This document shows, in pieces, positions 38,701-62,504 of a stretch of DNA of 62,504 nt. Position 1 is the stretch's first letter, and each line of letters opens with the position of its first letter. A model generated the notes under the pieces. The model saw only the letters and a list, made by a program, of their open reading frames with translations, searched no databases and had not been told where the DNA came from. Position numbers and translations under genes: made by a program. The DNA comes from Barthelona sp. PCE (taxonomy: Eukaryota): assembly GCA_040285745.1 (NCBI GenBank), contig JAUFOR010000008.1, forward strand, positions 2,108,001 to 2,170,504. Direction: 5' to 3'.

Positions 38701-40465
38701 ATTTAGTTGTATCAATACATTTATCACTGAAAAATACTGAACCACTATTTAAAAAATGGATAAAGCGAGTCATAGCTGACCAAATTCCCTTGTAGAAATG
38801 TTTTTCAAAAAAACCTATATCCAATGAGTTAGTAATACGTGGGTCTTTAAATATGGAACCATAAAATAATAAATGTACTTCACTGCCCACAATGTCCTTT
38901 AAATCCCAATAATCTTCAAAATATATCAGCAATTTTAAACATTGGCAGAAAAATTCAAGTTCTCTGTTTTTCATTCTTGAAGAAAGAGACTCTATCAAAA
39001 ACTGCTGCTGCTGTTGTGGCAGTTTTTGAATGGCTTTTTTAACGTTCTGAATATCATTTTCACTATGATTTCCTCTATGTAATACTACAATTTCTCTCCA
39101 TAAGTCCGAATACCAGTGTGACATAGTGATTTTCATAAAATATGATATATGCATCTGTTCATCGTAATCAATGCCTGAATTCATTTCTTGCAGTGTAATA
39201 CATCGAATATTCTTGGCAACACAAGCTTCAATGTCATTTTCAATTATATTTGTCCCAAATCTGTGCTTGGGAAAGAACATTATACTTTCAACGGCTTTAT
39301 ACGGCTTGAATCGAAGAAAAAAATATCTTAAGGAAAAGAAATCATCACCAATTCGGGGTTTAAATACATTATCATACTCTAAATTAGTCTCAATCTTGTT
39401 TAAGTGATAGTAATTGAAAAAATCTTTAAAAATTAAAAAGGTAACACTGATCTGTTGAATACAATCATGGTGACATTTTTTCCACTGACATGCAAAGATT
39501 AAAGAAAACAATTTAAACAGTTGTAAAAACTGAAAACGAAAATATTCGAGAAAGCAATTCATGTTTAGTATTTGTATAATAAAATACAATACTTCAATTG
39601 AAACTTGTGGATCTTCCGTTTCTTCAAAAAACTGCTTTAACGAGTTATTATCAACATGTTCGCTCCATTGTGTATCATGAAGTGTCATCATATGCACATA
39701 ATCGGAGCTGGTCATTTCTTCATGATATTTCCCTTCTTGCTCAAAGATTAAATGATCAATAAAACCATTTCTATCCAGATTACTTGGAACATTTCGAATA
39801 ACATTCAAAAAACAATCATCTAACAGATAAATTGCATTTAATGCCTTAATATTCTTATACAGTACATCCAATACACTTGTATCAGCATGCAGCAACCAAA
39901 AATATCGAAAACAGAAAAAAAAATCACTCATGTTATTTGAATTCCAATAATGCAAATATGCACCATCAAAACATGTTATTGAAAATTCTGACATCATTGT
40001 TGAAACGAATTTTCTGCACCAAAAAATCATTTTAGGAGGCAAACATGGTGGAACAAAACACATTGCAACTATTTCATCAACAAATAGTATTGTATCAGCA
40101 GTAAAATTTAGATTAAAATCAAAAAGCTGCAAATCAGCTCCTGCAACCCATTTCTCCTCAAAATTATCATTTTTTCGTGGATGAATGTACAAAAAAACCC
40201 TTAAATCCAGATCATGCATCTGATTGCTATTAAAATTAAATGTATGATATATTCTATCACCAGATCGATCAAATCCCTTCTCAAAGAACATTAAAAACTT
40301 GTTTTTTTCATGAAATTCGCATGTGTCAAACTCAATTGTGCGTTGATTATTGATACCCATTTCCTGCAAACGTTTTGCAACATCTTTGTTCAGTTGCTCA
40401 AAAAATATCCCCTTATTCCGCATCTCATCGTGCTTTGACGTTGGTTCTGATATTGATGATGACAT
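35798..40465 (-). CDS. Large hypothetical multi-pass membrane protein (1555 aa)
   Basis: Uninterrupted AT-rich ORF with a helical N-terminal ~1000 aa, ~10 hydrophobic segments, and a soluble C-terminal domain. Confidence 0.75.
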   Translation of the reverse strand: MSSSISEPTSKHDEMRNKGIFFEQLNKDVAKRLQEMGINNQRTIEFDTCEFHEKNKFLMFFEKGFDRSGDRIYHTFNFNSNQMHDLDLRVFLYIHPRKNDNFEEKWVAGADLQLFDFNLNFTADTILFVDEIVAMCFVPPCLPPKMIFWCRKFVSTMMSEFSITCFDGAYLHYWNSNNMSDFFFCFRYFWLLHADTSVLDVLYKNIKALNAIYLLDDCFLNVIRNVPSNLDRNGFIDHLIFEQEGKYHEEMTSSDYVHMMTLHDTQWSEHVDNNSLKQFFEETEDPQVSIEVLYFIIQILNMNCFLEYFRFQFLQLFKLFSLIFACQWKKCHHDCIQQISVTFLIFKDFFNYYHLNKIETNLEYDNVFKPRIGDDFFSLRYFFLRFKPYKAVESIMFFPKHRFGTNIIENDIEACVAKNIRCITLQEMNSGIDYDEQMHISYFMKITMSHWYSDLWREIVVLHRGNHSENDIQNVKKAIQKLPQQQQQFLIESLSSRMKNRELEFFCQCLKLLIYFEDYWDLKDIVGSEVHLLFYGSIFKDPRITNSLDIGFFEKHFYKGIWSAMTRFIHFLNSGSVFFSDKCIDTTKFSEEMIEDLRIAFKENIQKNPILSVRFFLCCLFQHKENLKSYMEPKMLGWAGDFHSLNSLNFGLFDFINGENVRFIPEDFLYSKKPLSEEKLKDYLNRVAKSSIGAYNFSSISLQVMESPNADADIPKVCSPTLIDLLVLALNRNYTTFYKIAHRFSTDFTFYTEKRGVERKIYFPFSLFCQLSNDFKKMFCLVHLSVYDESPVLRSVYDSLTIGGANFKCNEVKLHSFSHEVVDAINIFSIIEEHTYLHVVMENPRLINHYLPFCEKHRVFQDLLDRKNDKGRFPLSILLDKACYFELIDLLHHFTEDFVRSLTALERASVFSAFKNAGKIKELHEKLTELKCLSLFELSLGKGATFVCVGDCEDDMLSLSKLRTLHNSVVTHVVDTEKSKFVYCNNSAFVRYSTEEIDNFESSSYLPPKNISCRLFVAFILFFTFVFTFIFDRLYFISSGYSSFSDFLSSFSEEDSNLFESITQEFDAVFDNNWSIFSAVSCIVAFVLICLSDFVERSLTSCASVERTTFWKSMIQYGLILITVISEVIFILKCTSVSFFSYLFLTLLFFLCYSKAFEMINGAISKKMTEKYSIGRINCVVSSLFVIFALVFSLILKLRFNWGTCICVCIVFIIFILTSVFSKISTIFLNSSILLTWLICAVSLLCGHFKVEFSGMALLLTFVPSIFFGAMEATREVFVNRVSEYFERPQFRYMGIFSGIFVTIGLFFNVSELSYFVWLILAIVIFLLAISYAKSMKKDFLSIAKSLKTKETEFLHCNLDGEYACVKLCNHTHVFVPEERKDAFNVVEVKEGKYKRSVGFYLALLKLFGFKRKGLLTLDCKPVSVIFDEESTEDEKYDVYGVDSLFFLVDKHFGNNGGDKTVELFFLMYVNKYDEHATRFKELLLLALNRGTVHNINMHECDLDGLKPNEFFTLLCSYKSDYEVILRLCIIDEHYSAQKFYNAYNKLRTESIFKS

Positions 40466-40748
40466 GCTTGTGTCAATAACAAAGAAAAGGAGAATATTAC
40501 ATTAAACAATCATTATACCAGCTTATTCACTTTAAAATGTTCCTGTATTCGCAACAAATCAACATTTTCAATATTTATGAGTTGAATTCACAACAAACTT
40601 TTTTTCTTCACTCTAAGCACAAAAAGTACATTTTTACAATATTTCATCACTTTATCAACCATAATGCACTTTACACAGGGATATATGCTGATAATAAGAA
40701 ATCGGTATGAAAAATTTCCATATAGAACCATAAAATGCTCTAAAAAAG

Positions 40749-42596
40749 TTATGAAAAGTTGAATCTCTTCAGCTCACGATTAATATGCTCGTTGCCCTTG
40801 TTCATGGTATTCAGCGTTGACTCCATGCGTTCATTAAAATCATTACAACAGTTCTGCACATCAACACTAACTTCTGACTGTATGGCTCCGACAACCGTAA
40901 CAAGTGAGTCCGACATCTTTTCGAGGGCGCTTGAAACATTCTTCATGAAAGCTGCCTGTGTATCAACGAGCTCTTCGACCCTCTGGGAAAGCAACTCCAC
41001 CCTCTCATGCACGGATAACTGTTCTTGTTTGTTGAACAAATCATCAATCTCCACATTCTTCTTCTTTTTAACCGATCTATCATCACTCCGCGATTTTGCT
41101 GCAACTACAGGCTTGGGTTTGGGTTTGGACATGCTGATAATAGCATCATCGGTTTTGATTCGTGTATAATGTGGTGTTGGCACGTACTGAGCACTTGAAA
41201 TAGCAGACGGTGATATGAAACGGAAAGAGCTGAAGTTGACTGAGTCAAAGCAGAATTGCAAAAAAAATGATAGTCTCATGTACTTAATTCTTCTCAAAAA
41301 TTGCACACTAACCGAATTCGTACGAACCAGCGCTCCAAACACAAAGAAATCAGGTAAACTCTTCTTGGATGGAATGTAAGTGTTATGTAACGGAACAAAT
41401 GGCTCAAGAATGTAGTTCGGGTAATCATATTCGAACATTCCATTGCAAATCAAATGCACAACAGTGTTGACATCATGCGAAAGAGAAACTTTCAACAGTC
41501 TTGCTGCTGTTTTGTTGATAAACTGTTCATTGTAGCTCCTTACATCCTTAACTGATTCCATCCCCAGCATCCTAGAAATGCCTTCGCATAACACATGTTT
41601 AGCTTGCCTGTTGAATACGGGGAAGAATTTCTGTTTCCCAAAAAGACAAATTAGAATGTGCACGAATCGGTCAACCTGCCGCATTTCCATGAGCTCGTCG
41701 TATCCTGGTGCGTTCTCAATCTCAGCAATCAATCTGCCTTGCTCAATCTCAGCTTGAAACACGGTGACTTCTTTTCTCATCGGTTTACCTTCTTTCTGAA
41801 CCACTGTATCACGCTTCTTTTTTGAGGAAGCACTTGGATCATCCAACATTCGACCCTCACTTGAAAAGTAGGAATCAAAAATTCTCTTACAATCAAAAAA
41901 CGAATCCCTAAATATATCCATATATAATATGTCAAAAACAGAATGATCACCCTGCATATTCAGCAGATTAAGACAGACAAATACGAATGAAGCACCCAAG
42001 GTGTCAATCACTAAAGTTGGTTCGGATGATTTAAACAGATGTGGAAATTGACGTAATAAGCACAGCATACAAATATGTTCTGCTGGAACGAGAGCATTTT
42101 CTTCATCACAACGTTCCAATACATTCCTGAACAGGACTGCCGTGGGTTTAAAACCTAACAACTTTTGGGGATTAGAAGACCTAAAAATAAACTGGGATAT
42201 CAACTTACGTGCCAGTTCGTCCAAATTAACCCTTCTTTGCAGCAAAACGTAACTATCTTCACTGCGAATGCCATCGAAGCTCATAGCGACCGATCTAAAA
42301 TTCAATATTGCTTGAGGGAGCATAGGAATGTTGTTTACCAAAAAAAACTCAGATGTTATATTCAAAACTGATTCAGCAACCACTGTGGGACGCTTAAACT
42401 GAAACAAAATCCCAAAAAAACGCTGTACAAAGGCATTTGTATGCTTAAGAATTAAAACAAGCTCTGCTTTGTTAACAATAACAATATCAGGCTCCATATA
42501 TATATGATCATCCATATGACTAAGTAAAACCCCTGAAAATCCAATGATACAACAACAGCTGTTGAAAGAGGAGGAAAAAAGAACCTGTGAAATCAT
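40749..42596 (-). CDS. Hypothetical protein with a C-terminal coiled coil
   Basis: 615-aa ORF; the start may be MDDHI at about 42515. Confidence 0.7.
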   Translation of the reverse strand: MISQVLFSSSFNSCCCIIGFSGVLLSHMDDHIYMEPDIVIVNKAELVLILKHTNAFVQRFFGILFQFKRPTVVAESVLNITSEFFLVNNIPMLPQAILNFRSVAMSFDGIRSEDSYVLLQRRVNLDELARKLISQFIFRSSNPQKLLGFKPTAVLFRNVLERCDEENALVPAEHICMLCLLRQFPHLFKSSEPTLVIDTLGASFVFVCLNLLNMQGDHSVFDILYMDIFRDSFFDCKRIFDSYFSSEGRMLDDPSASSKKKRDTVVQKEGKPMRKEVTVFQAEIEQGRLIAEIENAPGYDELMEMRQVDRFVHILICLFGKQKFFPVFNRQAKHVLCEGISRMLGMESVKDVRSYNEQFINKTAARLLKVSLSHDVNTVVHLICNGMFEYDYPNYILEPFVPLHNTYIPSKKSLPDFFVFGALVRTNSVSVQFLRRIKYMRLSFFLQFCFDSVNFSSFRFISPSAISSAQYVPTPHYTRIKTDDAIISMSKPKPKPVVAAKSRSDDRSVKKKKNVEIDDLFNKQEQLSVHERVELLSQRVEELVDTQAAFMKNVSSALEKMSDSLVTVVGAIQSEVSVDVQNCCNDFNERMESTLNTMNKGNEHINRELKRFNFS

Positions 42597-42644
42597 TGAA
42601 TTAACCTTGCAAAATGTTTATTCCAACACCAATTTTATTCTTCA

Positions 42645-44744
42645 CTATGTTTGAATAAACATGCTGTACTCATCTATGGATGCCTCAGCAAGGAACGATG
42701 GAAGGTGGAACGTTTCCACTGTGGGATTCATCGATTCCGGGTCTTCCTCAATATTGAAAGTTTTCACCACCATTGACTTGGTTTCTTCTTCGTACAATAT
42801 ATCTTGAACAATGTTATTGGGTAAATTTGGATCGTTGTTTTGCTTCATATCATGAGAATAAGGCAAATTATTGTTCGTAAAAAAACGCGTTGTAAGTACA
42901 CCGTTATCAACAGATGCTTTAACTACACCGTTACAAACATGTATATACGAATCTCCCAGGAAATCTCGGAAAAAGTTGCCTTCCTCCGTTTCATCATATA
43001 TATAATACTGATAAAGGAGAACAGGTTCTAAGAAGCTTCCTGTTGACCAATCAAGACAATTCAAATGCTCAGATTCAAATTCTTGATCGTGTTTCTGTAT
43101 AAGAAATAGCTGATGATCAGGTGTTTCAGCCAATGGACGAGGGTTAAGGTAAACATCACATGAATATTCATGTTCAAAAACAATGTGCTTTTGAACATCC
43201 ACGTCATACCCGCTGACATTGAACCGAAAAAAATGGACTGCTTCATCACATACAATGCACGCTGAATTATCAATATGTGAACCATAAACCCCTCTGATTC
43301 TAATATTAAGGGGAAGCTCCAAAATCATCTTACTTCCCAAATACAACAAGCATGTGTCTTCATAATAGCCAGCATTGACTGGTAACCCAAGAATGAAGCC
43401 AAAGATTTCAGACCCGCAATGCGGTAAAATAATTGTGGTGTGATTGGATCCTGAACCTTTCCAGTGTATTTTGGCACATGTAATACCTGTTTCACTGCGT
43501 TGCTGAGCCATTACATAGAAATCAACTGAATCATCAAATTTTATGTTGAAATTTCCTTGATGCTTATTCACATTCTTCAGCACAATAAGCCTCCTTTCTT
43601 TGAAACAAAAGTAACTCCTTCTCACAAGATCATCATACACTTCCGCTATTCCATCAAAAAAAATTCCTGTTGGATTAAGACTTTTTAAATGCACAACCTC
43701 ATTACCAACCTCACTGAATTTGATTGGGCCATAACGTCTTCTTCTATTCGCACCAAATAAAACACAACCTTCATCATGAAAGTAACTATCGTTCAAGTCT
43801 ATATGCTTAAAATTATCACAAAGTACATTCTTAAGATTCATTTCACCTCTTGCTATCTTAAAGTCACCGCTTACGATATGAATCATTGTAAAACTTGACC
43901 CAATAAGTAACATTGACAAAACATCTTGAGTGAGCGTCAACAATGAAAAATTTTAGTTTCTGTTAATACACAATCCTTTAAGCTGTGGAAACCTTTCTGT
44001 TAAGTTAACGCGGTTCCTCTGAGTATCAAGTATCATTAGCTCATCAATTTCTTGATCGCGAAACCGGACTGAACAAATACAATCCGAGTTGTAACACCCG
44101 AAGTATTTTGAATCAATACCATGCAACTGCTCAATATCAGGTTCATGTACCTCGTCCATGTCATCTGCAGAAAAATTGTAATGCCAAATGGATTTATCTT
44201 GGCTTTTCTTTAACATAATGTAGTTTGAAAAATTCACTTCAATTGAGCTGTACTCTCCAATACATCTATGTTCCTCTGTTAGCACATTTAATATGTAGCA
44301 CTTATGAAAAAATTGCCTGTTGTTAGCGGATTCCCCAATTGTGAACAGTAGGTGTTTTTCATCAATGGGAATTATTCTGCCTAATAGCCTCCTAAAGCTG
44401 TTCATCTCAAATGGGAAGGATATTCTTCTGCTTGTATGTTCAGCACTCATGACATCATTAAATAATAAGATATCAAGATGGGTTAAACTACGATTATCAT
44501 CACAAAGCTCTTTAATTATCATATAAAATTCTCCAGCTTTTAATTTGGATGTGTACTTGAGATGCTTATATGTGTCCTCCACATACCCAACGAATTCATT
44601 GCCTTCAATACCACTTTCAATGAGATTGGTGATACTTGTTCCTCTAGAACTTAACAATCTTAGACCCTGGCCCTCAAATATCATCTGCCCCTCGGGATAT
44701 GCCCTGATGATAAGGTCGTCCTCGAACTTTCGAACCCTAGGCAT
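42645..44744 (-). pseudogene. MPRVRKFEDDL-family paralog 1, interrupted by an in-frame TAA at 43953-43955
   Basis: ORFs 43953..44744 and 42645..43943 share a frame and together align end to end with 49598..51709, which has TCA (Ser) at this codon. Confidence 0.75.
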
Positions 44745-44809
44745 ATGGATGTGGTGAGAATTCCGGAAACAATGAACAAATTTTCATAACCTCTTTCAGC
44801 TCGAAATTT

Positions 44810-46286: not shown

Positions 46287-46465
46287 CACAGTAATTTGTT
46301 ATTCCCATTCTTGTTTACTTTTACCAATTGTGCTTGCGGAAATATGTTGTTAGGTGTTACCTATGATTCAGAAGTAGAAATGAATTATGCTGGATTAACA
46401 AATTTTTTGTTTCATTATAACAAGTCTTCAAAAAAAGTGTCTTTTTTTATGCTAAGGTAATGGAG

Positions 46466-48652: not shown

Positions 48653-49597
48653 ATAAAAGTAGTTTGCCGTGATGAAACAAGTGTAAAAAGAGATAGCAGT
48701 TTTGATTACTTACACTGTGAAGATTTAAAGATTCAATTTTATTGTAAAGCTTGACCCCTGATCCTTTATGGACGATAGGGATCAATTATCATTAACTACT
48801 GCTCAGATAATAATGATTATTGAACTTCTTATTGCTATTTTAGGTATTTTATTTTTTAGAAAAATAATCAATGTTTCGGAGACATTTTTTCAAAAGTAAT
48901 CTCTACAGTGTATTTAGGAGAACTAAAATTATCATGTTCACGTATCTAGTATATCATGAATATGTGACCAGAGACGGTCTTTATGTATTTCATTTTAGAA
49001 TGTTATCATTCCTTTAAGCATCAACCACCGGTTTGATGTTCAGTAAGTCCATGGTACAAATAAGAATAAAAATAATACAGGCTGGCTTACCATACATGCG
49101 TTTGTTTCCACCAAATAACTATCAATATTTAAAGCGGAAAAAATGTTAAATTCGAATAAAAAACGTTCAGGCACTATTACATGTTCAGAAAACGCAGAGC
49201 ATGATTCCTTGTAAACAAGAAAGAGAAACTTAAAAAAATAAATGCCCTCATCGTTCAAGTCTTCTGTTGCCATATATAAGAAATTCAATAGTTAACATGG
49301 TATCCAATTGAAGTCGAAAAGTTCTACGTCATCGTTTCTTGATAACATAATATTTTCAAAATACATTAAAAAATAATGTGCAAAAGTAAAGAATGAAAAA
49401 AATTATAAAAAAAAATCCCAAAGCGCCCTTTTTATCTTGATTATAGAATTTTCATAAAAACATCTTTCAGAACTCACAATAACCTCATAAGGGAATAACA
49501 TAGAACACACCAATTTTAAAAATCACAATTATTTTGTTTAGTAAAGAATGTTTGTTGGACACCAGTCTGAATATTTGTTCATCTGATTTTCAGTCTA

Positions 49598-51709: not shown

Positions 51710-51772
51710 ATATAGCTGTAATGAAGTAGGTGAATATTAAGATAGCTTGCATATATTAAATATTAGTGCTTG

Positions 51773-51926
51773 CACGTGGCATATAAAGATGATATAATAC
51801 ACGTGAAGCGTAAACAGAAAGCGCGAATGTGAAACAGGACTGCATTCGAATTTCTATCCCCTCACAGATTTATTGATGTGGTTCGCAGGGCTTGTAGCAC
51901 GTGGCACGTAAGATTGTTGGCACGTG
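51773..51926. promoter_or_regulatory. Cluster of four CACGTG (E-box/G-box) palindromes
   Basis: CACGTG at 51773, 51800, 51898 and 51921, 64-217 bp upstream of the paralog 3 ATG. Function is inferred only. Confidence 0.4.
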
Positions 51927-53359
51927 AGGGCATTGGCTTGGTTGTGGGGCACTTTTTTGCTGCGTTGTGGGTACGGCTCGCGCCTTTTGGGATGTGCTTC
52001 ATTGTACACGCATAAGCATTCAGTAAGCACCGCTGCATGCGTCACTGGATGCTAGACTGCGCCAAAACTTCTGTTTCCAAATTTTCAGCCTAATTCTCAT
52101 CAGATTTTCCTGATTCACACGATGCCAACCGTAAAGCGTGAATGTGAGGACGACGATATCGACGTTCAAACGTCTTTTGAGTTTGTGCTGGATTGAACCA
52201 CTGTTTTGGTGGCATTACGAAAGTCATGATGCCAATCTTGTCGCCAACGATTCCAATTTTGGTGACATATAGGAAGAGATCCGGTTGCTGACAGGATGTT
52301 CGACTGATGTATGTTTGTTGAAAGAGACGAAGGTTTGAAAATTGAATAATAAGAGGGAGAATCGAAATTCTTTTTTTTATCCAAGGTATCGTTACAAATG
52401 GATATATGATATGGGTGCTTCATAAGAATATTGTACAACTGCATATGCTTACAAATCACTAATTTTCAGATTTGTATTTAATCACTCAGTCAGAGAATGT
52501 TGTTTTTAATGTTTTCTATTTCTTTATATTAGGAATTGAGATATTGAGATATTCCATATGTTTTTGCAGTATCCCAGTGACACAATGCCTCTCATCATTG
52601 ATTGGCATCATCATGGACAGTGAATATTGAGAATAACTTGATGGCAATTATGAATATGCACTGCAGCAGAGTAGAATCAACGTTTGCTGAGATCATAGCG
52701 TTGGTACAGCGTGACCCCAGCGTTGTCTTATATCGATAATAAATTCGTGAATAATGAGTTTTAAACTTTTTTGAAAACAGAAATGAAAGCATTCTTTTGT
52801 CGTGACTGGTTGGAGCAGCATTTTGAATTTTTTTGAGTGAGCATGTTACCGTGTTGTGTATGCGTTTATCCGTTGTAAGCCTGGCATAACTCGGTGCATA
52901 CAGAGATACAGTTGCAGGTTCATGCATGCGGCATCTCTGGCTATTTGAATGTGTTGTGCAATTGGATGGTATGTGCTTATAAGTGGTGCAGCTCTGGTAT
53001 AGCAATAAATTTGAGCTCAAAAAAAGAAAAAAATGTTGCACGCACCTGTAATGCTCTGTGCATATTTCCGTCGTGATGGGGTTGATATATATGATATGTA
53101 TTGCAGTATGTTGCAGGACTGCGAGTGGAATCTTAATGGAATAAAAGATACGTTTTTTCTCGGCGCTGCGTGGCTATTTTTTCATTTCAATCAAGTTTAG
53201 TGTTAGTATATGTGCTTCTTATGCGTGGAGACCAATTTTGATTGAGAGCGCGAATTCTTAAGAGGAGAAATGAGCTCTTAGAAATTCCCAACTAGAAAGT
53301 TACCCCTAATAAGTCTGCTAATAAAATGAGAGAAATGCTACCGTGGAAATTTGGTTTTG

Positions 53360-53767
53360 CTGATATTTTTATTAGTATTTAGTGTGAGTTGAGTTTTGGA
53401 AACTATTAACACGATATATCATAGATGTGATATATACAATAGACATTATCAAATTCAAACTGTAATATATGATTTTATAAGGAATGAACCTTATTCTGAT
53501 TTCACTAACATAATATATTAGCAATTCTTTTAGATATTCGCGTGGAATTTAGTATTTACTAATATTTGTGTTTGTGAACTTTTTGAGTTCGCATCACTAT
53601 TGTTAAGATTTTTTTGTGATGCCCAACTTTTGGAATTCACTAATATCATTATTAGCAATTCGCTGAAAGTGAGCACGAGCGAATTTTTTTATTAGGCGCT
53701 AATGAATTATATTAGGGAGAAAATGAATAATTGGCGAGAAATCTCCGTTTACTAACATTATTATTAC
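53360..53767. repeat. Degenerate AT-rich dyad repeats CTAA-N8/9-TTAG with short inverted repeats
   Basis: Exact units at 53505, 53640 and 53699; one-mismatch units at 53360 and 53752. Inverted repeats GCATCAC/GTGATGC (53591-53622) and AATTCGCT/AGCGAATT (53657-53685). Confidence 0.5.
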
Positions 53768-53904
53768 TTATATTTTTGAAATGGTCAAAACAAATCAAAC
53801 TCCGCCGAAACGCGCGTAGAGTAGTAAATAGTTTATTAGTTTTCGAGCAAGCTGTCCCGGATTCTCGTATGTACTGTTCCTTGGTCTTCTGCTAACTGTT
53901 AGTA

Positions 53905-56900
53905 TCAGACTCTACGCCTGCTCCTTGCTGCCCTCATAATGTTCTTCATAGCATAAGCGTGAAAAGCAAATAGATGGTAGCTAAGACCTTTTTTAAGTTT
54001 CGTTCCACTGGTCTTAATTGATTGCGACGTTGATCTCTCGTTCAACGACTCGAGCACCTGTTCCCACGACGTGTAAGCTAGCTCGAAATTGTATTTCTCG
54101 CGTGCCTTCGACGTCGGTTCCCACAACATCGGATCCCAAATGGCTCCTCCGTGCGCAACGGCCATAATCTTGACCGGCGGGTCATCAAAGTTTTGTACTT
54201 ATTTAGCTTCTTGTAAAAATAGGCTGCACGTACGTGACCTCGATCTTTGCTCGTGAACGGCGATGTAGTCATAACATCCACCACAACCTTGGGTCCGCTT
54301 GCTTCCAGTATTGCAAAATCTGGTCGCTTACGTTCTTTCCGATTGGGGCACGACTCACCACTTTCGTACCGTTCATGTGTCCAACCCAATTGTACACGAT
54401 GTATGTCACTGTACTCCTCAAACTTTCTTTTAGGAATTGGCTTATCCAAGTTGAAAATATGAGCATTTCCTGATTTTCGAACAGTATCAACTGTTTTCTC
54501 AAGAATGTTGTTGTGCAGTTTGACGACAAGACCGTGATTTTTTGAACAAGAATAATGATGACTTCTTCTGTCCAAAACCTTCTCTCCACAGAAGTTGCAC
54601 CGCCCAGAGGCGTACATTTCGCGAAGTTCAGGGAACAACAATTGGTATATACCGGCTAAAGCATAACCAAACATGTAACGCTCATCAAACATTGAATGAA
54701 TATTGGCAACTGACCTTTGGGGCCATGTGGCGACGGTAGCATCGAGTGACCAGGCAACAGAACGCTGAGACATCAAGGCGTCTCGGGATATAAATGATTC
54801 TGGATGGAAACGACAATGTTTGATCGCATAATCAAACAATTCGAAAAAACGTTTTGTGAGAATGTTTTGTAGTTTGCTTTTTTGACGCACAATATTAGTA
54901 GCCATACTGATCTCAACATCGTACGACTCCATCTGAGTGTGCTGCCCATAGTTTACGGCAAGCCACAGTAAATTTGAAGCAAATTCATGCTTTGTTTCAC
55001 TGTTAAGAGAAACTGCTTCCACAAGTTTGTGTTGGCAATCCTCATCTTGGTAATGAGCATCCGGCATAAAGTAGGGTTTGTTATCTTTGTCATAGTTGAA
55101 TCTAGCTGCGGCCAAATAACGTGGGCTAAGCCTAGTGAAATCCGACCACTCAATCAAATTGAAACGCTTGATTGAGCTACTTACCGAAGCGGTACTTGCC
55201 AAGTCAGCTATTTTGTGGAGAAACACAAAGTCTAGACAACCAGTCCCACCAAGAGACAAAGGATAACGGAGAGTTGGAGCTTCATCGATCGATAACTCAT
55301 CGGCTCCAGGAATCATCTCAAGAAGTAAATTCTGTTTGATGGTCCTTTCCATATCATCAACTGCATCTTCAGTGAGAGTCACCGAGCGTACGTGATGAAT
55401 GAGCATCTGATCAATCGACATAGAAGCAAGATACTTGAACAAAGCTGTCCCTGGACTTATATACTCGAGAAGTTGTTTGACGCCATTGCTAAATCTTGCG
55501 CATGCATGACTAACATTAAAGTCGCCAATCTGAGTACCTAACAATTGATAAAAAGCTAAGCTTAAGTTGTGGGTAGCGATGTTCTCTTGCTCTTCACCTC
55601 TTGGAAATATCCTTGAAGCGAAAGCAATACTCCCGGCTCCATACCCCACCAGCTCACACTTCTCAGCGTTCACTTTCAGGTTATAGAACTCGAGCTTACC
55701 CTTGATTACATCAAAGGTTGACATGACAGTTGATGGTTCACCAACAATATAAATATCGTCAGCATACGCGTACATATTGACTGAATCTGGGGCTACGGCT
55801 TTCGTATCCTTCAAAACTTCAGCAATAAGAAGAGCAAACAACAACGGAGACGTTGCGTTACCCTGTAACACGCCCATACAACTATCAAAAGGAAGGCGCT
55901 CTCCATTCGACCAAATCGGAATTGGCCTTTTGCACATCTGATGATATGCTTGGAAGCACCAAGGAGCATGTGCAGCGACAATATGCAGCAGCTTGTCACG
56001 ACGAACGCTGTTGAAGGCGTTAGCAATGTCAATAACAAGAGCAACATTACGATCACTTCGCTTTAGATTAACATCCACGAGGTTTGCGACCAGAGCAGTA
56101 GCATCCCGCATCCCAGCACCGAATTGTTTGTGTTTAAACAAGTACTTTTTGACACGTTCAGACTGAAACTTCAGATCTTGACTCGCGATGATCTTATCAG
56201 CGATACCACCGAGTGCAGAGGCAACTGCGATGGGGCGTACAGGCATATGCTCACCCTCTTGAAGCTCCTCCACATGCTTTTTGTTAAGAGCAATTAGTCG
56301 GATATTCCAAAGGGCCCACGGGCGCGATCCGAACGCATAATCATTGATAACTTGAGTAAAAGCATCCATGTAGCGATCGTTACGATAGATTTCAGCCACA
56401 AATAACTTAAGTAAATATGGCATCACTCCATCGGCACCGGCAGAAATGTACTTTTTGACTTTTTTGGTGGTCTCATACACCATATCTTTCGATATTATGA
56501 ATTCCTCAGGGTCCCACTCACCTCTCTTGAAAGAACTCATGGTTTCGCGCAGAATCGCATCAGAAACTGGTGCACTGACTGGATGCTTTGATTGCATCTG
56601 TTCCAGCACGTTAGTATCTGATAAAGGCATGGTACCTTGACTCTTTGCTAGCCTTATGGCCTTTCCTGGTTGGTTGGCGTCTGCGTACTTCTTCATACGA
56701 AGGCTTACAGACTCCCTAGACTCAACGGATGGCTGATTGGAACGTTGCCTCGGCGTCTTACCAAAACATAGCGCAGAAGCTGCAACTATTAGAGCCTCGC
56801 CTATACATCGTTGAGACTCACGTAATGGAGTATTCCGTATTAACAAACCAATCTTCAGGACACAGAAATATAGCTTTCTTGATTTCTTATCACCAATTAA

Positions 56901-58760
56901 ATTATCTTGGTTCTCGATAACTTTCTGAAAAACAAACTCATTAAAAACTTCTAGAGCATCGTCTTTGTCTAGGTCTGGTCGTAAAGAATGTAGAGCCAGG
57001 ACCCCGGACAATTTGTTGACAAACTCCTTGATTCTCACAAGTGTTTCAATATTACCGCTCTGCCACTGAGGCAATCGCGGTGGATTAGCGCAATAAGCGC
57101 CCAGAAGTTCTCCAAAGAAATCTTCAGCAACTCTTCTCTCAGCAATTTCGCTATTACCGTCAGTTGCACAAAGTCGATTGAATCGGACCAGCGGGTCGTA
57201 CAGTAAAATGGGGAAAGTGTATTCCATACGAGAACTTGAAACTGGGTATGTAACATTGCTCATAATAGGAGGAGCTTGGTTGGTAACACTGCTCGTAACA
57301 GGAATTGAAGGCGTCGGGTTAGTATCTACCGGGTCAACATCCAATGTATGTGACTGTGACTGGTTCCGGTTAACCAATGCTGGCGCTCCAACTTCTTGGA
57401 AGACAGGATCATGCGATTCTGGATCACTTTCCACCTTAAAAATATGACTGAGTAGAGGAATCATTCTACTACTAAAACATGGGAAGAGACGGTACAATTT
57501 TCTACTTCCATTGAATTCCAAACAGGCCTTGATAAACGCAAACATCACGAAATAGAAATTATCCGTGAACGGTTCTACATTCTGCCAATGATAAACATTC
57601 TGGCCACGCGAGTCCATTCTGAATTTCATACAAGACACACTTCTAACGAAATTGATTGCTGCCGGATGTAAAATCCTGCAACGCTCATCTTCCTTTTCCT
57701 CAGAAGCGACACTCCTTATAGTGTCATCCAAATGTGTGAATCTCTCGTCTCCAAACTTCTCATTGATAGCATGTACAATCTCGTTTGCATCAACACCAGT
57801 GCTGCATACTTTCAGGATAGCATGTGCAATAACGAGTTGTCCTCGTGTACCTGGGCTTGAAAGACGTACACCAACGGTTTCCATCTTCTCACCTTCAATA
57901 CTGCGTAAAGACAACCAATCTGCGTCAGTGCACAAGCCACTCCACTGATCATGAACATTTTGTCGAATTATTTCTATGGACGGGGCTCTCCTGTTGTTTG
58001 AAGAAACTTTCGTCCTTTGAATTATTGACAACATCTGCTCACCGAACTCTGTTAGTTGGTACTTGACATCTTCCTTAAAATACATAATTGTTTGCAAAGG
58101 ACTATGTGGCGTAGTATCACTTGGATTGGCTAACATTGTTTCGAGTTCCTCATATACCCTCTCTATTTCTGGATCGGTTACATAAGCTGCAGGAGGAGTC
58201 CTAGATACTTCTTGCTCTTCATACAAATAATAATCATCATCATAAGTCCACTCTGGAAGTGGGGGAGGTGAGTCTACAGTATCTGAAAATGTATCTGATA
58301 ATGTATTGTGAAGAGAAAGGGTCACAAGGTTGAGCTGTGACTGTCGGTAGAGATATTCTACCACACTATTTGTCAGTTTTAGCGACAGAACACGACACAG
58401 TTGCAAAACGCACGAAACCATGAAAATAGCGTCGTGGCATGCATATAATGATAACACAGTGTCGTGGGGGACAGCTTGGGCCCGTGTGCGGGGCATAATG
58501 ATCGAATGAAGTGATGTTAAAAATCGTGAACTCCATAAGCTACCACAAATCATATTTTGGAAAAATAAATTCTGAAGTTTGCAGTAGGCACACTCTGAGT
58601 AGAGCTTGTGGACAAGTATCTTGACAAAACCGGCATAACGTGACCCAAATTTACCAAAGTCTTCATCTACCTTACGCAGGCATATGGGCTCAAATGGCGT
58701 ATATTGGTGGTCGTAGAGTACGTGGGGCGCCCCAGAGGACCTGTTACTGCTCGGAATCAT
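53905..58760 (-). CDS. Retrotransposon polyprotein: reverse transcriptase, CCHC knuckle and PD-(D/E)xK endonuclease (one frame break at ~54191)
   Basis: RPIAV, QFGAG, DIANAFNSVRR, GVLQGNATSPLLF, YADD, LKVNAEKC, PLSLGGTG, CNFC...H..SC, HN, RPDF...DVMTTSP...KLNKY. One extra A at 54191-54194 joins ORF 53905..54165 (KIMAVAHGGAIW). The start could instead be MPRTR at 58496. Confidence 0.93.
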
Positions 58761-59489
58761 CGAAAAATAGCGGCGAAACGGCTTGAAATTGATTGAAAAT
58801 TGTAAAGCGAGATGGCATGATTATAAAGATGTCTCATGCCCGCAGGGGGACCCATGGGATAAAACACTCTAACAAAGCTTGACGTAGTGTCTTGCCATGG
58901 CTGAAATCTGCTGTAAAACAACAAAATCCCCGCATCATGCATCTGCAACAAAAATTCCCTGCTTGAATACGTCGAAAGCGCCTCTTGAGGAGGGCCAGGA
59001 CATGGAAATAGCGAAAGAACCATCACTGTAGAAGTTTTGGAATTTGAATTTTGTTCAAAGTTGTTTGGGCGTTTCTGTGCTTGTAAAAGCGCGTCTACGC
59101 ACCCGATACATGCTGATCTGCTGGGTCTAACCCCTTTAGAATCGTTCTGCATCACAACTAAAAACGTTTTCTTCATATTCACTATTTGTGCCCATTTTTT
59201 CGTATTCAGCGATCGTAACGACACCAAAACGACGTCCTCCGAGTTTGAAATAGCTGCACTTCCATCACAACACGAGTCTTTTTTTTTCTCAAAACTAACA
59301 CCATTTTCGGCGTTTCCAGTAGTCTGAACGGGTTCAGGGCTGCCTTCTACGCGTGTTCCATGTATCCCATCAGGTCTAAAACCTTCTTGGTCCATATTCT
59401 GCAAATAGTCTCGTTTATGATCAAATAATATGACAGGCGATGCGATTTTCATGTTACTGCTCGGAATCATCGAATAGCGGCGAAAACGG
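58742..59489. repeat. ~40-bp direct repeat pair (58742-58781 and 59452-59489)
   Basis: TGTTACTGCTCGGAATCATCGAA(AAA)TAGCGGCGAAA(A)CGG occurs twice, 710 bp apart. Confidence 0.9.
58757..59470 (-). CDS. Putative upstream ORF of the retroelement (237 aa), overlapping the RT ORF through ATGA
   Basis: Open 237 codons. Its TGA overlaps the ATG of the RT ORF, and both ORFs begin MIPSSN. No family recognised. Confidence 0.4.
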   Translation of the reverse strand: MIPSSNMKIASPVILFDHKRDYLQNMDQEGFRPDGIHGTRVEGSPEPVQTTGNAENGVSFEKKKDSCCDGSAAISNSEDVVLVSLRSLNTKKWAQIVNMKKTFLVVMQNDSKGVRPSRSACIGCVDALLQAQKRPNNFEQNSNSKTSTVMVLSLFPCPGPPQEALSTYSSREFLLQMHDAGILLFYSRFQPWQDTTSSFVRVFYPMGPPAGMRHLYNHAISLYNFQSISSRFAAIFR

Positions 59490-62394
59490 TAGGGCCAGTT
59501 TGCTGGTTTTCGAGTGCCGCACCCGCTGGCGTACTGTTCCTGGTCTTCGCTAACTGTTAGTATCGCAGACTCTACGCCTGCCCTGCCGCCTCATAATGTT
59601 CTTTCCAGAATAAGCGCAGTGCCAAATAGATGGTAAAGCAGACCTTTTTTAAGTTTCGTTCCACTGGCCTTAATTGATTGCGATTGCCGATCTCTCGTTC
59701 AACGACTCGAGCACCTGTTCCCCACGACGTAAGCTAGCCCGAAATCAGGTATTTCCCCGCGTGCCTCGACGTGTCGAGCCCTTGCCAACATCGGATCCCA
59801 GCAAAATGGTTCTCCGCGCGCAACGGCTGGCTAAGTCTTGACCGGCGGCCTTCCAGTCAAAGTGGTAATTATTTAGCTTCTGTAAAAATAGGCTGCACGT
59901 ACGTGACCCTGATCTTTGCCTCGTGAACGGCGATGTAGTCATAACATCCACACCACAACCTTTGGGTCCGCTTTGTTTGTGTATTGCAAAAATCTGCGCT
60001 TACGTTCTTCCGGATTGGGCACGCTCACCCTTTTCGTACCGTTCATGTGTCCAACCCAATTGTACACGATGTATGTCCTGTACTCCTCAAACTTTCTTTT
60101 AGGAATTGGCTTATCCAAGTTGAAAAATATGAGCATTTCCTGATTTCGAACAGTATCAACTGTTTTCTCAAGAATGTTGTTGTGCAGGTTTGACGATCAG
60201 ACCGTGATTTTTTGAACAAGAATAATGATGACTTCTTCTGTCCAAAACCTTCTCTCCACAGAAGTTGCACTGCCCAGAGGCGTACATTTCTGCGAAGTTC
60301 AGGGAACAACAATTGGTATATACCGGCTAAAGCATAACCAAACATGTAAAGTGATCAAACATTGAATGAATATTGGCAACTATTTGGGGCCATGTGGCGA
60401 CGGTAGCATCGAGTGACCAGGCAACAGAACGCGGACATCAAGGGCGTCTCGGGATATAAATGATTCTGGATGGAACGACAATGTTTGATCGCATAATCAA
60501 ACAATTGAGACGTTTTGTGAGAATGTTTTGTAGTTTGCTGACGCACTATATTAGTGCAGCCATACTGATCTCAACATCATACGACTCCATCTTGAGTGTT
60601 ACGTCATAGTTTTCACGGCAAACTACAGTAAATTTGAAGCAAAATTCATGCTTTGTTTCACTGTTAAGAGAAACTGCTTCCACCGTTTGTATGTTTGGCA
60701 ACTCTCATTCCTGGTAATGAGCATCCGGCATAAAAGTAGGGTTTGTTATCTTTGTCATAGTTGAATCTAGCTGCGCAAAATAACGTGGGCTGTTTTGAGT
60801 GAAATCCGACCACTCGATCAAATTGAAACGCTTGATTGAGCTTTACTGAAGCGGTACTTGCTAAGTCAGCTATTTTGTGGGAGAAACACTAGTCCCAGAC
60901 AGCCAGTCCCACCAAGAGACAAAGGATAACGGAAGTTGAGCTTTCATCGATCGATAACTCATCACTCCAGGAATCATCTCAAGAAGTAAAATTCTGTTTG
61001 ATGGTCCTTTCCATATCATCAACTGCATCTTCAGTGAGAGAGCGCACCGAGCGTGCGTGATGAATGAGCATCAGATCAATCGACATAGGTAAACGTATGA
61101 TCGCGGGAACAAAGCTGTCCCTGGACTTATATACTCGAGAAGTTGTTTGACGCCATTGCTGGGACGTCTGCGCATGCATGACTAACATTACAGTCCGCCA
61201 ATCTGAGTACCTAACAGTTGATATAAAGCCAGCTTAAGTTGTGGTAAGCGATGTTCCTCTTGCTCTTCACCTCTTGGAAATATCCTTGAAGCAGCAATAC
61301 TCGGCTCCATACCCCACCAGCTCACACTTCTACGCAGCATTCTGTTCTCTAGGTTGTCATAGAACTCGAGCTACCCTTGACCACATCAAAAGGCTGGCGC
61401 ATGCAGTTGATGGTTCACCAACAATAAGTAACATATCGTCAGCATACGCGTACATATTCCAGTGACTGAATCTGGGGCTACGGCTTTCGCATCCTTCAAC
61501 ACTTCAGCAATGAGAAGAGCAAACAACAACGAGACGCCAGTTAGTCTGCAAACTACGCCCATACAACTAAGTCAAAAGGAAGGCGCTCTCCGCATTCGAT
61601 TCTAAATCGGAATTCGGCCTTTTGGCACATCTTGATGATATGCTTTGGAAGCACCAAAGGCAGCATGCATGACAGCGACAAATGCTTTGGCTTGTCACGA
61701 CGAACGCTGTTGAAGGCGCGAAGTCAAATGTCAATAACAAGAACAACATTACGATCGCTTTCTAGCTTTTAGATTGACATCCAACGAGGTTTGCGACCAG
61801 AGCAGTAGCATCCCGCAATTCCAGCACCGAATTGTTTGTGTTTAAACAAGTGCGCTTTGACACGTTCAGACTGAAACTTCAGATCTTGACTCGCGATGAT
61901 CTTATCAGCGATACCACTGGAGTGCAGAGTGCAAACTCAGCGATGGGGCGTGCTGAGGCGACATGCGTTCGTCACCTCTTGAAGCTCCTCATGCTTTTGT
62001 TAAGAGCGACTAGTCGGATATTCAGAAAAGGTGCCCACGCGCGATCCAGAACGCATAATCATTGGATAAATTTGCAGTAAAAGCATCCATGTAGCGATCG
62101 TTACGATAGATTTCAGCCACAAATAACGAGCAAATATGGCATCACTCCATCGGCACCGGCGAAAATGTGACTCTTTTGACTGCGGTCTCTCACACCGCTA
62201 TCTTTCCCTGATGTGCCCAGATTCCTCAGGTCCTGCTCACCTCTCTTGAAAGGAACTCGTTGGTTTTCAGCTGGGAATCGCATCGAAACTGGTGCACTGA
62301 CGATGCGCTTTGATTGCATCTGTTCCAGCACGCTAGTATCTGATAAAGGCATGGTACCTTGACTCTTTGCTAGCCTTATGGCCTCGGGTTGGCT
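59481..62394 (-). mobile_element. Copy 2 of the same retrotransposon, head-to-tail, 5'-truncated and indel-rich
   Basis: Colinear with ~53806-56660 (e.g. GTACTGTTCC at 59531 vs 53871; ATAAAGGCATGGTACCTTGACTCTTTGCTAGCCTTATGGCC at 62343 vs 56621), with dense small indels. Confidence 0.9.
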
Positions 62395-62504
62395 GGTCTA
62401 TGGTGGTCTGGCATGGCTCCAATGGTCTATATGGTCTATATGGTCTATGGGCGGTCTATGGTCTATATGGTCTAAGTGGTCTGTTATGGTCCAGTATTCA
62501 TATG
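62395..62504 (+). repeat. Terminal tandem repeat, consensus GGTCTATAT (candidate telomere)
   Basis: About 11 imperfect units, including three exact GGTCTATAT and several GGTCTAT, running to the window end. Confidence 0.65.

Follow-up and report, generated by a model that had tools for sequence, protein, structure and literature searches.

Does a retrotransposon array that lies at the end of a chromosome belong to a family dedicated to telomeres, or to an ordinary mobile element family that happens to occur there? This question is raised by a stretch of 62,504 nucleotides (the window) from the free-living metamonad Barthelona sp. PCE, the distal part of which carries two copies of an element that is best explained as a non-LTR (LINE-type) retrotransposon (Table 1). 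As the preliminary description had proposed, the copies abut in the same orientation, and both lie on the minus strand with their 3' ends facing the genes and their 5' ends facing the window end. Copy 2 (59531–62384) aligns with copy 1 (53871–56662) at 87.7% identity over 2929 columns (E = 0), a direct repeat that a repeat search of the window divides into 20 blocks; read by eye, the homology extends from 59506/53839 through 62399/56682 (copy 2/copy 1). No telomere unit was found at either copy junction: all three occurrences of GGTCTATAT in the window, and all four of GGTCTATATGGTCT (≤ 2 mismatches), lie at or beyond 62424, with none between the copies. The proximal 3' end of the array lies at 53820 rather than at the previously proposed 53806.

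The extent of copy 1 was drawn from its homology with copy 2, from short-read contigs that cover 53825/53834–59474 at ≥ 99%, and from the 3' UTR, which is read in frame down to 53820 in the annotated paralog PCE1_003952. Since the short-read contigs end at 53825/53834 and 59474, they confirm the boundaries of the unit. The non-coding stretch that separates the element from the last gene resembles the element in neither blastn nor tblastx searches (best E 0.55) and contains no Rfam or tRNA match and no long ORF. The setting is subtelomere-like, with three paralogous genes in tandem just inside.

Table 1. Features of the element array and its surroundings (window coordinates).
Feature	Position	Strand	Basis
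Unique non-coding DNA, 2.1 kb, between last gene and element	51710..53799	.	
Proximal flank CTACGCGCGTTTCGGCGGAG, resembling the tandem junction CTAC-CGTTTTCGCCGC (5' leader)	53800..53819	-	Sequence read; single junction
Copy 1, full-length element, 5,670 bp	53820..59489	-	Three boundary sources
3' UTR, 85 nt, without poly(A) or simple-repeat tail	53820..53904	-	End point from PCE1_003952 junction
C-terminal ORF continuation in consensus frame, ending ...RAARSRRRV	53905..54190	-	Translation
A4 run (T4 on + strand), 1 base shorter than in other copies; shifts frame before last RLE motif	54191..54194	-	
Restriction-like endonuclease (RLE) domain	54136..54545	-	Motif set and AF2 model of paralog
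CCHC motif CNFCGEKVLDRRSHHYSC	54546..54599	-	Regex
Reverse transcriptase core, residues 862–1038	55647..56177	-	Pfam RVT_1, E 7.1e-19
Main ORF, 1560 aa: N-terminal ~790 aa without recognised function, then RT, CCHC, RLE	54078..58760	-	
Upstream ORF1-like segment, 237 aa, starting MIPSSN as in main ORF	58757..59470	-	
5' leader (CCGTTTTCGCCGCTATTCGATGATTCCGAGCAGTAAC...), second occurrence internal at 58742–58781	59452..59489	-	blastn, 90% identity, 41 columns between sites
Copy 2, 3' part of element only (= copy 1 53820–56682), lacking ~2.8 kb at 5' end, indel-rich	59490..62399	-	
Degenerate GGTCTAT(AT) repeats up to window end, apparent telomere tract	62395..62491	+	

Intact copies of the element encode one long protein that comprises an N-terminal half in which no domain is recognised, a reverse transcriptase (RT), a CCHC motif and a PD-(D/E)XK endonuclease, and the RT-CCHC-REL architecture recognised earlier is borne out by the RVT_1 match, the CCHC regex, the RLE motifs and an R2-like fold. 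The N-terminal half yielded no Pfam match, no Atlas lead, no zinc-finger or Myb pattern (regex, Pfam) and no non-Barthelona homolog among proteins 858–2730 aa long. The RT motifs RPIAV (842), QFGAG (879) and DIANAFNS (911), which the preliminary description had listed, were located in the ORF together with YADD (999), and the pLDDT of the AF2 model across the RT part is 80–95. In an alignment with RLE-bearing relatives, the C, C, H and C columns of the CCHC motif are nearly invariant. The RLE domain features a KLH helix, RPD (54318–54326), VVVDV with its D at 54276–54278, KKLNKY (54195–54212) and GGAIW, a set that matches the one given for R2 (RH / PD / D-E / K..KY / RG.W) in the accessible part of PMC4838377; in the AF2 model of P0181, an intact paralog, residues 568–694 fold as helix-strand-strand-strand-helix-strand.

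In copy 1, the last of these motifs, GGAIW, sits in another frame, downstream of the shortened A4 run. The entire short-read depth carries an extra T at this run (13.9/13.9 in run X1, 10/10 in run X2), and the intact paralogs P0181, P0204 and P0206, in which the K..KY and G..W motifs are complete, read straight through the site (...KKLNKYKNFDDPPVKIMAVAHGGAIW...), whereas copy 1 and PCE1_003532 do not. Copy 1 may be inactive if the frameshift is real. The C-terminal continuation matches the ends of P0181, P0204, P0206 and P0002 at 100% identity. At the other end of the protein, the ORF1-like segment and the main ORF are fused in frame in P0013 and P0206, and part of the short-read contig depth carries one additional A at 58762 (3.5/9.85 in X1, 7.7/14.8 in X2).

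As described earlier, the distal copy breaks off upstream of the RT core, at a point corresponding to ORF residue ~693 and ~170 residues before the Pfam RT match, and passes into degenerate GGTCTATAT repeats. The first GGTCT stands at 62395, where the first repeat unit overlaps the element (TGGCGTCT in copy 1, TGGTCT here), and a period-9 array follows at 62422–62491 (7.7 copies, 70% matches), with the G/T-rich strand running 5' to 3' toward the window end. This terminal repeat contains 5'-TATATGGTCT-3', which is reported, in the part of the genome paper available, as the apparent telomere repeat of Barthelona sp. PCE on two contig ends (PMC11316075). Thus, the window end is a probable chromosome end, as had been supposed. 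The window's own protein maps to a 2,170,504-bp contig, and subtracting the window length of 62,504 from this figure leaves 34 × 62,000, which suggests that the window is the tail of that contig.

Beyond this locus, 17 other pieces of the family's ORFs are annotated under paralog names or locus tags on five contigs. Eight are on the 2,170,504-bp contig (tags 003348, 003447, 003532, 003600, 003854, 003952, 003960 and 004074), with neighbours 8–254 tags apart; four are on a 2,128,580-bp contig (000271, 000451, 000574 and 000726), two each on contigs of 1,334,541 bp and 134,457 bp, and one on a contig of 766,953 bp. Position was judged by locus-tag spacing, assuming that tags follow genomic position, and since the tags are scattered over hundreds of genes, most copies of the family appear to be internal to chromosomes. 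The preliminary description had itself named mostly internal copies as speaking against its proposal of a telomere-specialised family, and that proposal is not supported in view of the 17 pieces, the complete endonuclease of intact copies and a tandem at the internal tag PCE1_003952. The latter gene model (2834 aa) reads through a second head-to-tail pair, in the order ORF2 residues 89–1525, C-terminal tail, in-frame 3' UTR, ORF1 and ORF2 residues 1–1295, which indicates that head-to-tail pairing is a habit of the family. Paralog proteins are 97–99% identical to the window copy, and judging by these sequences the family appears to have been recently active. The short-read contig depth is higher in the 3' part of the element (13.9 and 10) than in the 5' part (~4–8), which we count in favour of 5' truncation within the family. 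In agreement with the earlier suggestion that the family is undescribed, no paper in the literature library that was searched names both Barthelona and retrotransposons, and the string 'retrotranspos' does not occur in the accessible text of the genome paper (PMC11316075).

We favour, as somewhat the likelier account, a newly recognised, recently active and dispersed RLE-type LINE family, one tandem pair of which sits at the end of a chromosome, where breakage or erosion was followed by capping with telomere repeats. The element probably belongs among ordinary mobile elements rather than among those dedicated to building telomeres. Its endonuclease would nick the target and its RT would copy the RNA starting from the RNA 3' end, incomplete copying giving rise to 5'-truncated copies. 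Head-to-tail pairs would form, and one pair would by chance be the last before the chromosome end. The distal copy would have lost its 5' 2.8 kb through breakage, erosion or incomplete copying, after which the end would have been capped by the host 9-nt telomere repeat in a putative healing event that started at a GGTCT-like stretch within the element. Several observations weigh against this account: one chromosome end was looked at; its layout is exactly as reported for Giardia GilM/GilT in the accessible descriptions; both junctions lie in a low-quality tail; and copy 1 is frameshifted ahead of its final endonuclease motif. Were the same array present on the other telomere-bearing contig mentioned in the available part of PMC11316075, this would argue for a real telomere association.

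The quality of the contig tail bears on a very unlikely alternative, in which copy 2, and perhaps the terminal repeat, would stem from a very small number of long reads (one or a few), unpolished or chimeric, leaving a single true copy or a contig that stops in an unresolved repeat. Between the two copies there are 133–136 mismatches versus ~160 indel events (257 indel positions), and copy 2 contains 29–43 stops in every reading frame. Since these differences are mostly 1–2-nt indels, copy 2 resembles the tail of a long-read contig left unpolished, and its differences seem to reflect long-read error and not decay. Short-read polishing of long-read assemblies frequently fails in repeats. According to the accessible text of PMC11316075, the assembly is a Nanopore assembly with short-read polishing afterwards. 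When short-read contigs from two public runs (X1 and X2) were compared with the window, coverage at ≥ 99% was confined to copy 1 within the limits given above; copy 2 had no match at ≥ 90% identity, no contig bridged the tandem junction (59474–59510), and no independent contig bridged the element/telomere junction, which lies in the low-quality tail like the tandem junction. The terminal array, moreover, comprises only ~100 nt with its 70% matches. However, both runs also miss the unique flank at 53001–53824, so the missing coverage of copy 2 is uninformative, and an error-rich sequence would still be a real second copy, badly read. The second annotated head-to-tail pair (PCE1_003952) argues that tandems are real for the family, and the terminal motif is the one that the assembly's authors report on two contig ends (PMC11316075, accessible part).

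A telomere-associated retrotransposon in the sense of Giardia GilM/GilT or Drosophila HeT-A/TART, which besides its internal copies would be preferentially added or retained at ends, with end-directed priming and end protection alongside the 9-nt repeat, seems improbable. The polarity is that expected from end-primed reverse transcription (3' ends proximal, antisense on the end-directed 5' to 3' strand), the abutting copies are not separated by telomere repeats, the cap follows directly on a terminal copy that is truncated at its 5' end, the sister group of barthelonids is Fornicata, to which Giardia belongs (PMC11316075), and an equal layout is described for Gil elements (PMC5537684, PMC10999387), as far as the accessible parts of these papers go. 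Yet tag spacing on the two large contigs leaves at most one or two of 12 pieces terminal; the internal tag PCE1_003952 also holds a head-to-tail pair; intact copies keep a full endonuclease, so a free end is unnecessary for them; and the 3' UTR is short, in contrast to the long ones of Gil and HeT-A (PMC5537684, in part). With a single end seen, polarity alone is a 1-in-2 event. Doubtful as well, although it would refine the dispersed-LINE reading and not exclude it, is self-targeting: an endonuclease recognising approximately CGTTTCGSCGS, a motif that every inserted copy would restore at its own 5' end, would let new copies land just upstream of residents, so that arrays grow head to tail and the telomere position is incidental. 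Both the tandem junction (CTAC-CGTTTTCGCCGC) and the leader repeat inside the element are similar in sequence to the flank on the proximal side of copy 1 (CTAC-GCG-CGTTTCGGCGG), a likeness that could possibly reflect a target-site motif; tandem pairs occur at two loci; and target specificity characterises most clades of RLE-bearing LINEs (PMC4640811, accessible part). CGTTTCGSCGS (≤ 1 mismatch) has five matches in the window versus 1.0 expected, but one of 100 shuffles likewise reached five. The sole basis for the site is one solo 3' junction, the PCE1_003952 junction appears to lack the CCGTTTCGCC part, short-read contigs end at both element ends and thus indicate that flanks differ between copies, and searches by regex and Pfam revealed no zinc-finger or Myb DNA-binding motif in the N-terminal part.

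Among known systems, the predicted fold is closest to R2: R2 proteins occupy the first seven places among the Foldseek matches (E 2e-14 to 7e-12, ~840 columns), and in VIA-align R2Bm ranks first (8gh6_A; Z 18.6, 564 residues, model 1–748 versus chain 422–1107). The element shares with R2 (R2Bm, R2Tg, R2Pm; PDB 8gh6, 9dou, 9nl2, 9nl3, 8ibw) the predicted fold across the RT, the linker and the C-terminal endonuclease, the domain order RT, CCHC, RLE and the RLE motifs PD, D, K..KY and G.W. In contrast to R2, it is only 13–15% identical in the structural alignments, shows no N-terminal zinc-finger or Myb motif (regex, Pfam) and no rDNA target (no Rfam match in the window), and is dispersed. In a FastTree phylogeny of 141 RT rows, in which Ciona Q76IM9 is the only named R2-like row, the Barthelona rows join no group and form a long isolated branch. 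The motifs RPIAV, QFGAG and DIANAFNS presumably resemble those of the CRE clade. This group includes CRE1, CRE2, SLACS and CZAR, and MoTeR and GilM/GilT are also placed there (PMC10088271, accessible part). By description, the RT tree holding no named CRE, Gil or NeSL references, the element shares with it the RLE, an early-branching LINE architecture and a YADD-type RT; unlike in that group, no spliced-leader or other RNA gene lies beside the insertion (Rfam and tRNA searches).

Elements at chromosome ends offer further parallels. TRAS/SART, MoTeR and Tx1-1_ACar are likewise located there alongside telomerase-type repeats, as the available part of PMC10088271 describes. They insert into the telomere repeat, however, so that repeats flank each copy, whereas the Barthelona junctions are free of the repeat unit. 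HeT-A, TART and TAHRE of Drosophila are known as APE-bearing members of the Jockey clade rather than as RLE elements. They resemble the Barthelona array in head-to-tail polarity, proximal 3' ends and a 5'-truncated terminal copy (PMC5537684, in part). Drosophila has no telomerase-type repeats, in contrast to the short-repeat cap in Barthelona, and its elements are telomere-restricted whereas the Barthelona family is dispersed. GilM and GilT (Genie) of Giardia were reportedly presented as telomeric non-LTR retrotransposons by Arkhipova and Morrison in 2001. In the accessible parts of the citing papers (PMC10999387, PMC5537684, PMC10088271, PMC1635262), Gil elements are exclusively subtelomeric with unusually long 3' UTRs, as opposed to at least 17 other pieces with mostly internal tags and an 85-nt 3' UTR in Barthelona. 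By these descriptions, the two systems nonetheless share a metamonad host, an element between subtelomeric DNA and terminal repeats, a one-orientation head-to-tail array with reverse transcription toward the end, a 5'-truncated terminal copy and copies that follow each other without intervening telomere repeats.

The full-length element near the window end (copy 1) is followed directly on its distal side by a second, 5'-truncated copy in the same orientation (copy 2), and the 3' ends of both face the genes (see table). Positions 59531-62384 of copy 2 align to 53871-56662 of copy 1 with 87.7% identity over 2929 columns. The two copies share 20 direct-repeat blocks, and the homology can be traced by eye as far as 62399/56682. 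Alignment, ORFs, and the terminal array all bear out the preliminary description of two abutting, same-orientation copies with a repeat on their distal side; the array layout stands, but its 3' boundary at 53806 does not and is moved to 53820. With the consensus-frame stop at 53905 and the element end at 53820, the 3' UTR is 85 nt long. ORF1 and the main ORF (ORF2) have the start MIPSSN in common because the leader is repeated at both sites.

Features of the window and other pieces of the element family in Barthelona sp. PCE
Feature	Location	Strand	Remarks
1555-aa ORF	35798..40465		no Pfam family
615-aa ORF	40749..42596		no Pfam family
Third paralog gene, split	43953..44744 + 42645..43943	-	no Pfam family
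Paralog gene, 728 aa	46466..48652	-	no Pfam family
Paralog gene, 703 aa	49598..51709	-	no Pfam family
Copy 1, full length	53820-59489	-	5,670 bp, within last 8.7 kb of window
Main ORF (ORF2)	54078..58760	-	1560 aa, copy 1
Leader repeat	59452-59489 and 58742-58781	-	~40 nt, copy 1
ORF1	58757..59470	-	237 aa, upstream of main ORF, copy 1
Degenerate GGTCTAT(AT) units	62395-62491, on to window end		period 9, 7.7 copies, 70% matches (TRF)
8 family pieces	2,170,504-bp contig		PCE1_003348, 003447, 003532, 003600, 003854, 003952, 003960, 004074
4 family pieces	2,128,580-bp contig		PCE1_000271, 000451, 000574, 000726
2 family pieces	1,334,541-bp contig		PCE1_004507, 004552
2 family pieces	134,457-bp contig		PCE1_003211, 003217
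1 family piece	766,953-bp contig		PCE1_002567

The main ORF encodes a LINE-type reverse transcriptase (RT), with a Pfam RVT_1 match at residues 862-1038 (E 7.1e-19) and the RT motifs RPIAV, QFGAG, DIANAFNS, and YADD all present. A CCHC motif, CNFCGEKVLDRRSHHYSC, lies downstream of the RT at residue 1388, and its C, C, H, and C columns hardly vary when aligned with sets of 31 and 36 relatives. RVT_1 is the sole Pfam family on the 1560-aa ORF at E up to 0.1, with no APE endonuclease domain; ORF1 likewise matches no Pfam family at this threshold. The N-terminal ~790 residues show no Pfam match and no zinc-finger or Myb pattern. Among proteins of 858-2730 aa, both matches to the N-terminal half were Barthelona paralogs, and none came from outside Barthelona. 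In the ESM Atlas, the N-terminal half scored no higher than 0.82 with any entry, and the RT part matched RVT_1 clusters that all lack names. When the whole ORF was compared with PDB sequences, nothing reached E 0.01; the part from the RT through the restriction-like endonuclease (RLE) matched only RTs of retrons or group II introns, with E-values of 0.01 or weaker.

The motif set of the R2 endonuclease comprises CCHC, the RH helix, PD, D/E, K..KY, and RG.W (excerpt of PMC4838377). In the window copy, RPDF...VVVDV and then KKLNKY are located 3' of the CCHC motif, and the frame shifts after KKLNKY. Three Barthelona paralog proteins (P0181, P0204, and P0206) carry RPDF, VVVDV, KKLNKY, and HGGAIW in one frame and continue past KKLNKY as ...KKLNKYKNFDDPPVKIMAVAHGGAIWDPML...RRRV, which corresponds to the frame of window 53905-54190. 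At the T-run 54191-54194, the entire short-read contig depth of two public runs (13.9/13.9 and 10/10) contains one extra T, and it is by such a 1-nt run-length difference that the last endonuclease motif falls out of frame in the window copy. Given the T-run correction and the paralog frame, the consensus protein therefore carries the full R2 endonuclease motif set. An extra A at 58762, found in part of the short-read contig depth, joins the main ORF to ORF1 without a frame change, an arrangement shared by the paralogs P0013 and P0206; with this fusion, intact copies thus encode a single protein of ~1,850 aa.

AlphaFold models from the RT to the C-terminus reached a mean pLDDT of 66, with values of 80-95 in the RT core. 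Foldseek ranked R2 proteins at positions 1-7 (E 2e-14 to 7e-12, ~840 columns), followed by human LINE-1 ORF2p, and the best VIA-align match was R2Bm (8gh6_A; Z 18.6, 564 residues, model 1-748 versus chain 422-1107). The C-terminus of the AF2 model of P0181, an intact paralog, contains predicted helices at 568-587 and 665-679 and strands at 592-595, 640-644, 647-657, and 688-694, with a pLDDT there of only 36-83. With modest confidence, this predicted succession of a helix, three strands, a helix, and a strand (568-694) fits a restriction-endonuclease fold.

Relatives of the element are distant. A HMMER scan of 1.84 billion representatives yielded 1,931 matches at E 0.001 or below, the best one outside Barthelona having an E-value of 3e-24; coverage was mostly confined to the RT core, and identity was at most 37%. 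Few of the relatives carry a name; those that do come from Closterium, Ciona (the RT Q76IM9), and Amphimedon, besides a jockey element. CCHC followed by [RKQH]PD..D/E was detected by regular expression in 24 of 173 collected proteins, namely two from Barthelona and 22 search matches. In a FastTree phylogeny of 141 RT rows, the Barthelona rows form a long isolated branch with a path of at least 3.18 to any other row, a placement that points to no particular clade; the CRE-like affinity first suggested is tentative. Searches of JGI metagenomes for relatives of the element produced 250 pattern matches, none of which was confirmed. Membership in the wider group of RLE-bearing LINEs (CRE, R2, R4, NeSL, and HERO) is well supported, and the element constitutes a new and highly divergent family of RLE-type LINEs, so far not described for barthelonids. 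The suggestion that the family is undescribed in this lineage is supported: within the library searched, no paper mentions both Barthelona and retrotransposons, and the accessible text of the genome paper (PMC11316075) does not contain 'retrotranspos'. The element adds an undescribed, endonuclease-bearing LINE lineage from a deep-branching, free-living metamonad, whose genome is tiny and repeat-poor (8 contigs, 10.2 Mb, 4.46% repetitive, 5,064 proteins; same part of PMC11316075).

At the distal side of the array, all exact repeat units in the window (3/3) and all two-unit matches (4/4) lie at or beyond 62424. The repeat published for Barthelona, as the apparent telomere repeat on two contig ends, is the 10-mer TATATGGTCT (accessible part of PMC11316075), which is contained in the window's GGTCTATATGGTCT across unit boundaries; the window array itself has a period of 9 and the unit TATATGGTC. 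One T of the 10-mer as printed seems to be an overlap with the next unit, and either the true unit is 9 nt long or the contig tail is short of bases. The G/T-richer repeat strand runs 5' to 3' toward the end, as is ordinary for telomeres. We infer that the window is the tail of the 2,170,504-bp contig, which carries the window's own protein and is longer than the window by exactly 34 x 62,000 bp, and a chromosome-end setting of the array, as first proposed, is probable because the terminal array contains the published repeat in this orientation. No telomere-type repeat was found at 53800-53840 on the proximal side or at 59470-59520 between the two copies, all units being located at 62395 or beyond; the insertions are thus not each flanked by repeats, as those of a telomere-repeat-targeting LINE would be. 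Where copy 2 breaks off distally, its sequence is ...GGTTGGCTGGTCTATGG..., as against ...GGTTGGTTGGCGTCTGCG... in copy 1, and the element's GGCGTCT is overlapped by the first GGTCT of the telomeric units. Such a GGTCT seed would be expected if telomerase had healed a broken or eroded end, which, at the low sequence quality of this region, is suggestive only. The site provides a concrete junction between a LINE and an unusual repeat, and thereby a handle on two questions: is the repeat really the telomere, and does a LINE-telomere association as in Giardia predate Giardia?

Three repeat units, used as a search pattern in metagenomes, identified eight stretches (GC 0.24-0.56), none of which encodes a relative of the element. 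One JGI contig (L004) is AT-rich and contains a perfect tandem array of the same 9-mer at 2001-2137 that extends to the contig end with the opposite polarity; another (L003) carries the 9-mer in tandem at 1860-2340 within an AT-rich mixed minisatellite. Neither has an RT nearby. These arrays were judged unrelated or uninformative.

Between the two copies there are 133 mismatches and 257 indel positions (~160 events, mostly of 1-2 nt), and every frame of copy 2 contains 29-43 stops. Natural decay proceeds mainly by substitutions, whereas an indel-rich profile is typical of an unpolished Nanopore contig tail, and where a repeat has a second copy, short-read polishing often does not succeed on it. 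To judge from the sequence, the differences look like those of such a tail, and the poor polishing of the last 3 kb calls for caution among users of the contig. Contigs assembled from the public short-read runs X1 and X2 cover only 53825/53834-59474 and confirm the unit boundaries. In these two runs, the unique flank and copy 2 are uncovered, no joints or telomere-bearing loose ends were found, and neither junction is bridged; a third run (X3) gave no contigs on the window. Contig depth is greater over the 3' part of the element (13.9 and 10) than over the 5' part (~4-8), which fits with 5'-truncated copies elsewhere. X1 and X2 belong to one study but have different organism labels, and both carry the element (53825-59474) with an identity of at least 99%. 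The two may be runs of one organism whose coverage was so low that nothing but multi-copy DNA assembled; otherwise, a second sample contains the element too.

Just inside the element, three tandem paralogs (42645-51709) with 43-67% mutual identity resemble a lineage-specific family of subtelomeric genes; the third is broken or has been mis-assembled. The region 36000-50000, with the last genes before the element, has a GC content of 0.31-0.37 and a negative GC skew; the mid-window GC content is 0.40-0.47. The last gene and the element are separated by 2.1 kb of unique non-coding DNA. An older decayed copy in this flank was ruled out, as there is no similarity to the element, and Rfam and ARAGORN searches revealed no RNA-gene target there. 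The sequence of the proximal flank, CTAC-GCG-CGTTTCGGCGG, is similar to that at the tandem junction, CTAC-CGTTTTCGCCGC. The leader-like motif, approximately CGTTTCGSCGS, has five matches in the window versus 1.0 expected, a number also reached in 1 of 100 shuffles, and the junction of PCE1_003952 seems to lack part of it. Based on one solo 3' junction, this motif could mark the target site; regeneration of the target motif at the 5' end of each copy would explain the head-to-tail pairs. Target-specific insertion is widespread, though not universal, among RLE-bearing LINEs. Flanks differ among copies, as indicated by the short-read contigs stopping at the element ends.

Homology searches and cluster look-ups identified a further 17 named ORF pieces that belong to the family, on five contigs (see table). 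At least 17 'hypothetical proteins' of the public Barthelona proteome are pieces of this one element (P0001, P0002, P0013-P0022, P0090, P0181, P0197, and P0204-P0206); several were modelled across frameshifts or with segments missing (P0002), and P0206 fuses two elements. Locus tags were assigned contig by contig, since the tag ranges of the contigs do not overlap. If the tags also follow position, as is usual, copies on the two large contigs are tens to hundreds of genes apart, at ~2 kb per gene, and at most one copy per free contig end can be terminal. Judged by these tags, and assuming that they are positional, the family is neither restricted to chromosome ends nor strongly enriched there. 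The 2,834-aa product of PCE1_003952 (P0206) consists of ORF2 residues 89-1525, the C-terminal tail, 18 residues, ORF1, and ORF2 residues 1-1295, and the eighteen residues correspond to the 3' UTR of copy 1 translated in frame, down to 53820. This gene model, which has an internal tag, spans a second head-to-tail pair, so that the family pairs in tandem as a habit, and such pairs provide no evidence of end addition. Intact copies retain a complete endonuclease and can therefore manage without a free DNA end.

These observations bear on the preliminary view of a telomere-specialised family, which conflicts with the 17 pieces on five contigs, the internal tandem pair, the complete endonuclease, and the short 3' UTR. 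It is most parsimonious to regard the element as an ordinary mobile one, of which a single pair sits within a subtelomere and was capped by telomere repeats. From the sequences at hand, the family as a whole looks dispersed and endonuclease-competent, with internal tandems as well. A true telomere role of the element is, in our estimate, unlikely.

The closest parallel to the terminal layout is found in the GilM and GilT elements of Giardia, which have been placed in the CRE clade (PMC10088271, in part). Like these, the Barthelona array, judged from one chromosome end with 3 kb of low-quality distal sequence, lies between subtelomeric DNA and terminal repeats, is arranged head to tail with the 3' end proximal, and ends in a 5'-truncated, capped copy. 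Gil and HeT-A have unusually long 3' UTRs (PMC5537684, in part), in contrast to the 85 nt of the Barthelona element, and, unlike in TRAS/SART and MoTeR, the insertions of the Barthelona element are not each flanked by telomere repeats. It is conceivable, if improbable, that the family is the barthelonid counterpart of GilM/GilT, that RLE LINEs stacked head to tail at chromosome ends, thinly capped with unusual 9-nt repeats, are a shared, ancient feature of Fornicata and barthelonids, and that the element or its RT takes part in end maintenance or healing; the internal copies would then be by-products.
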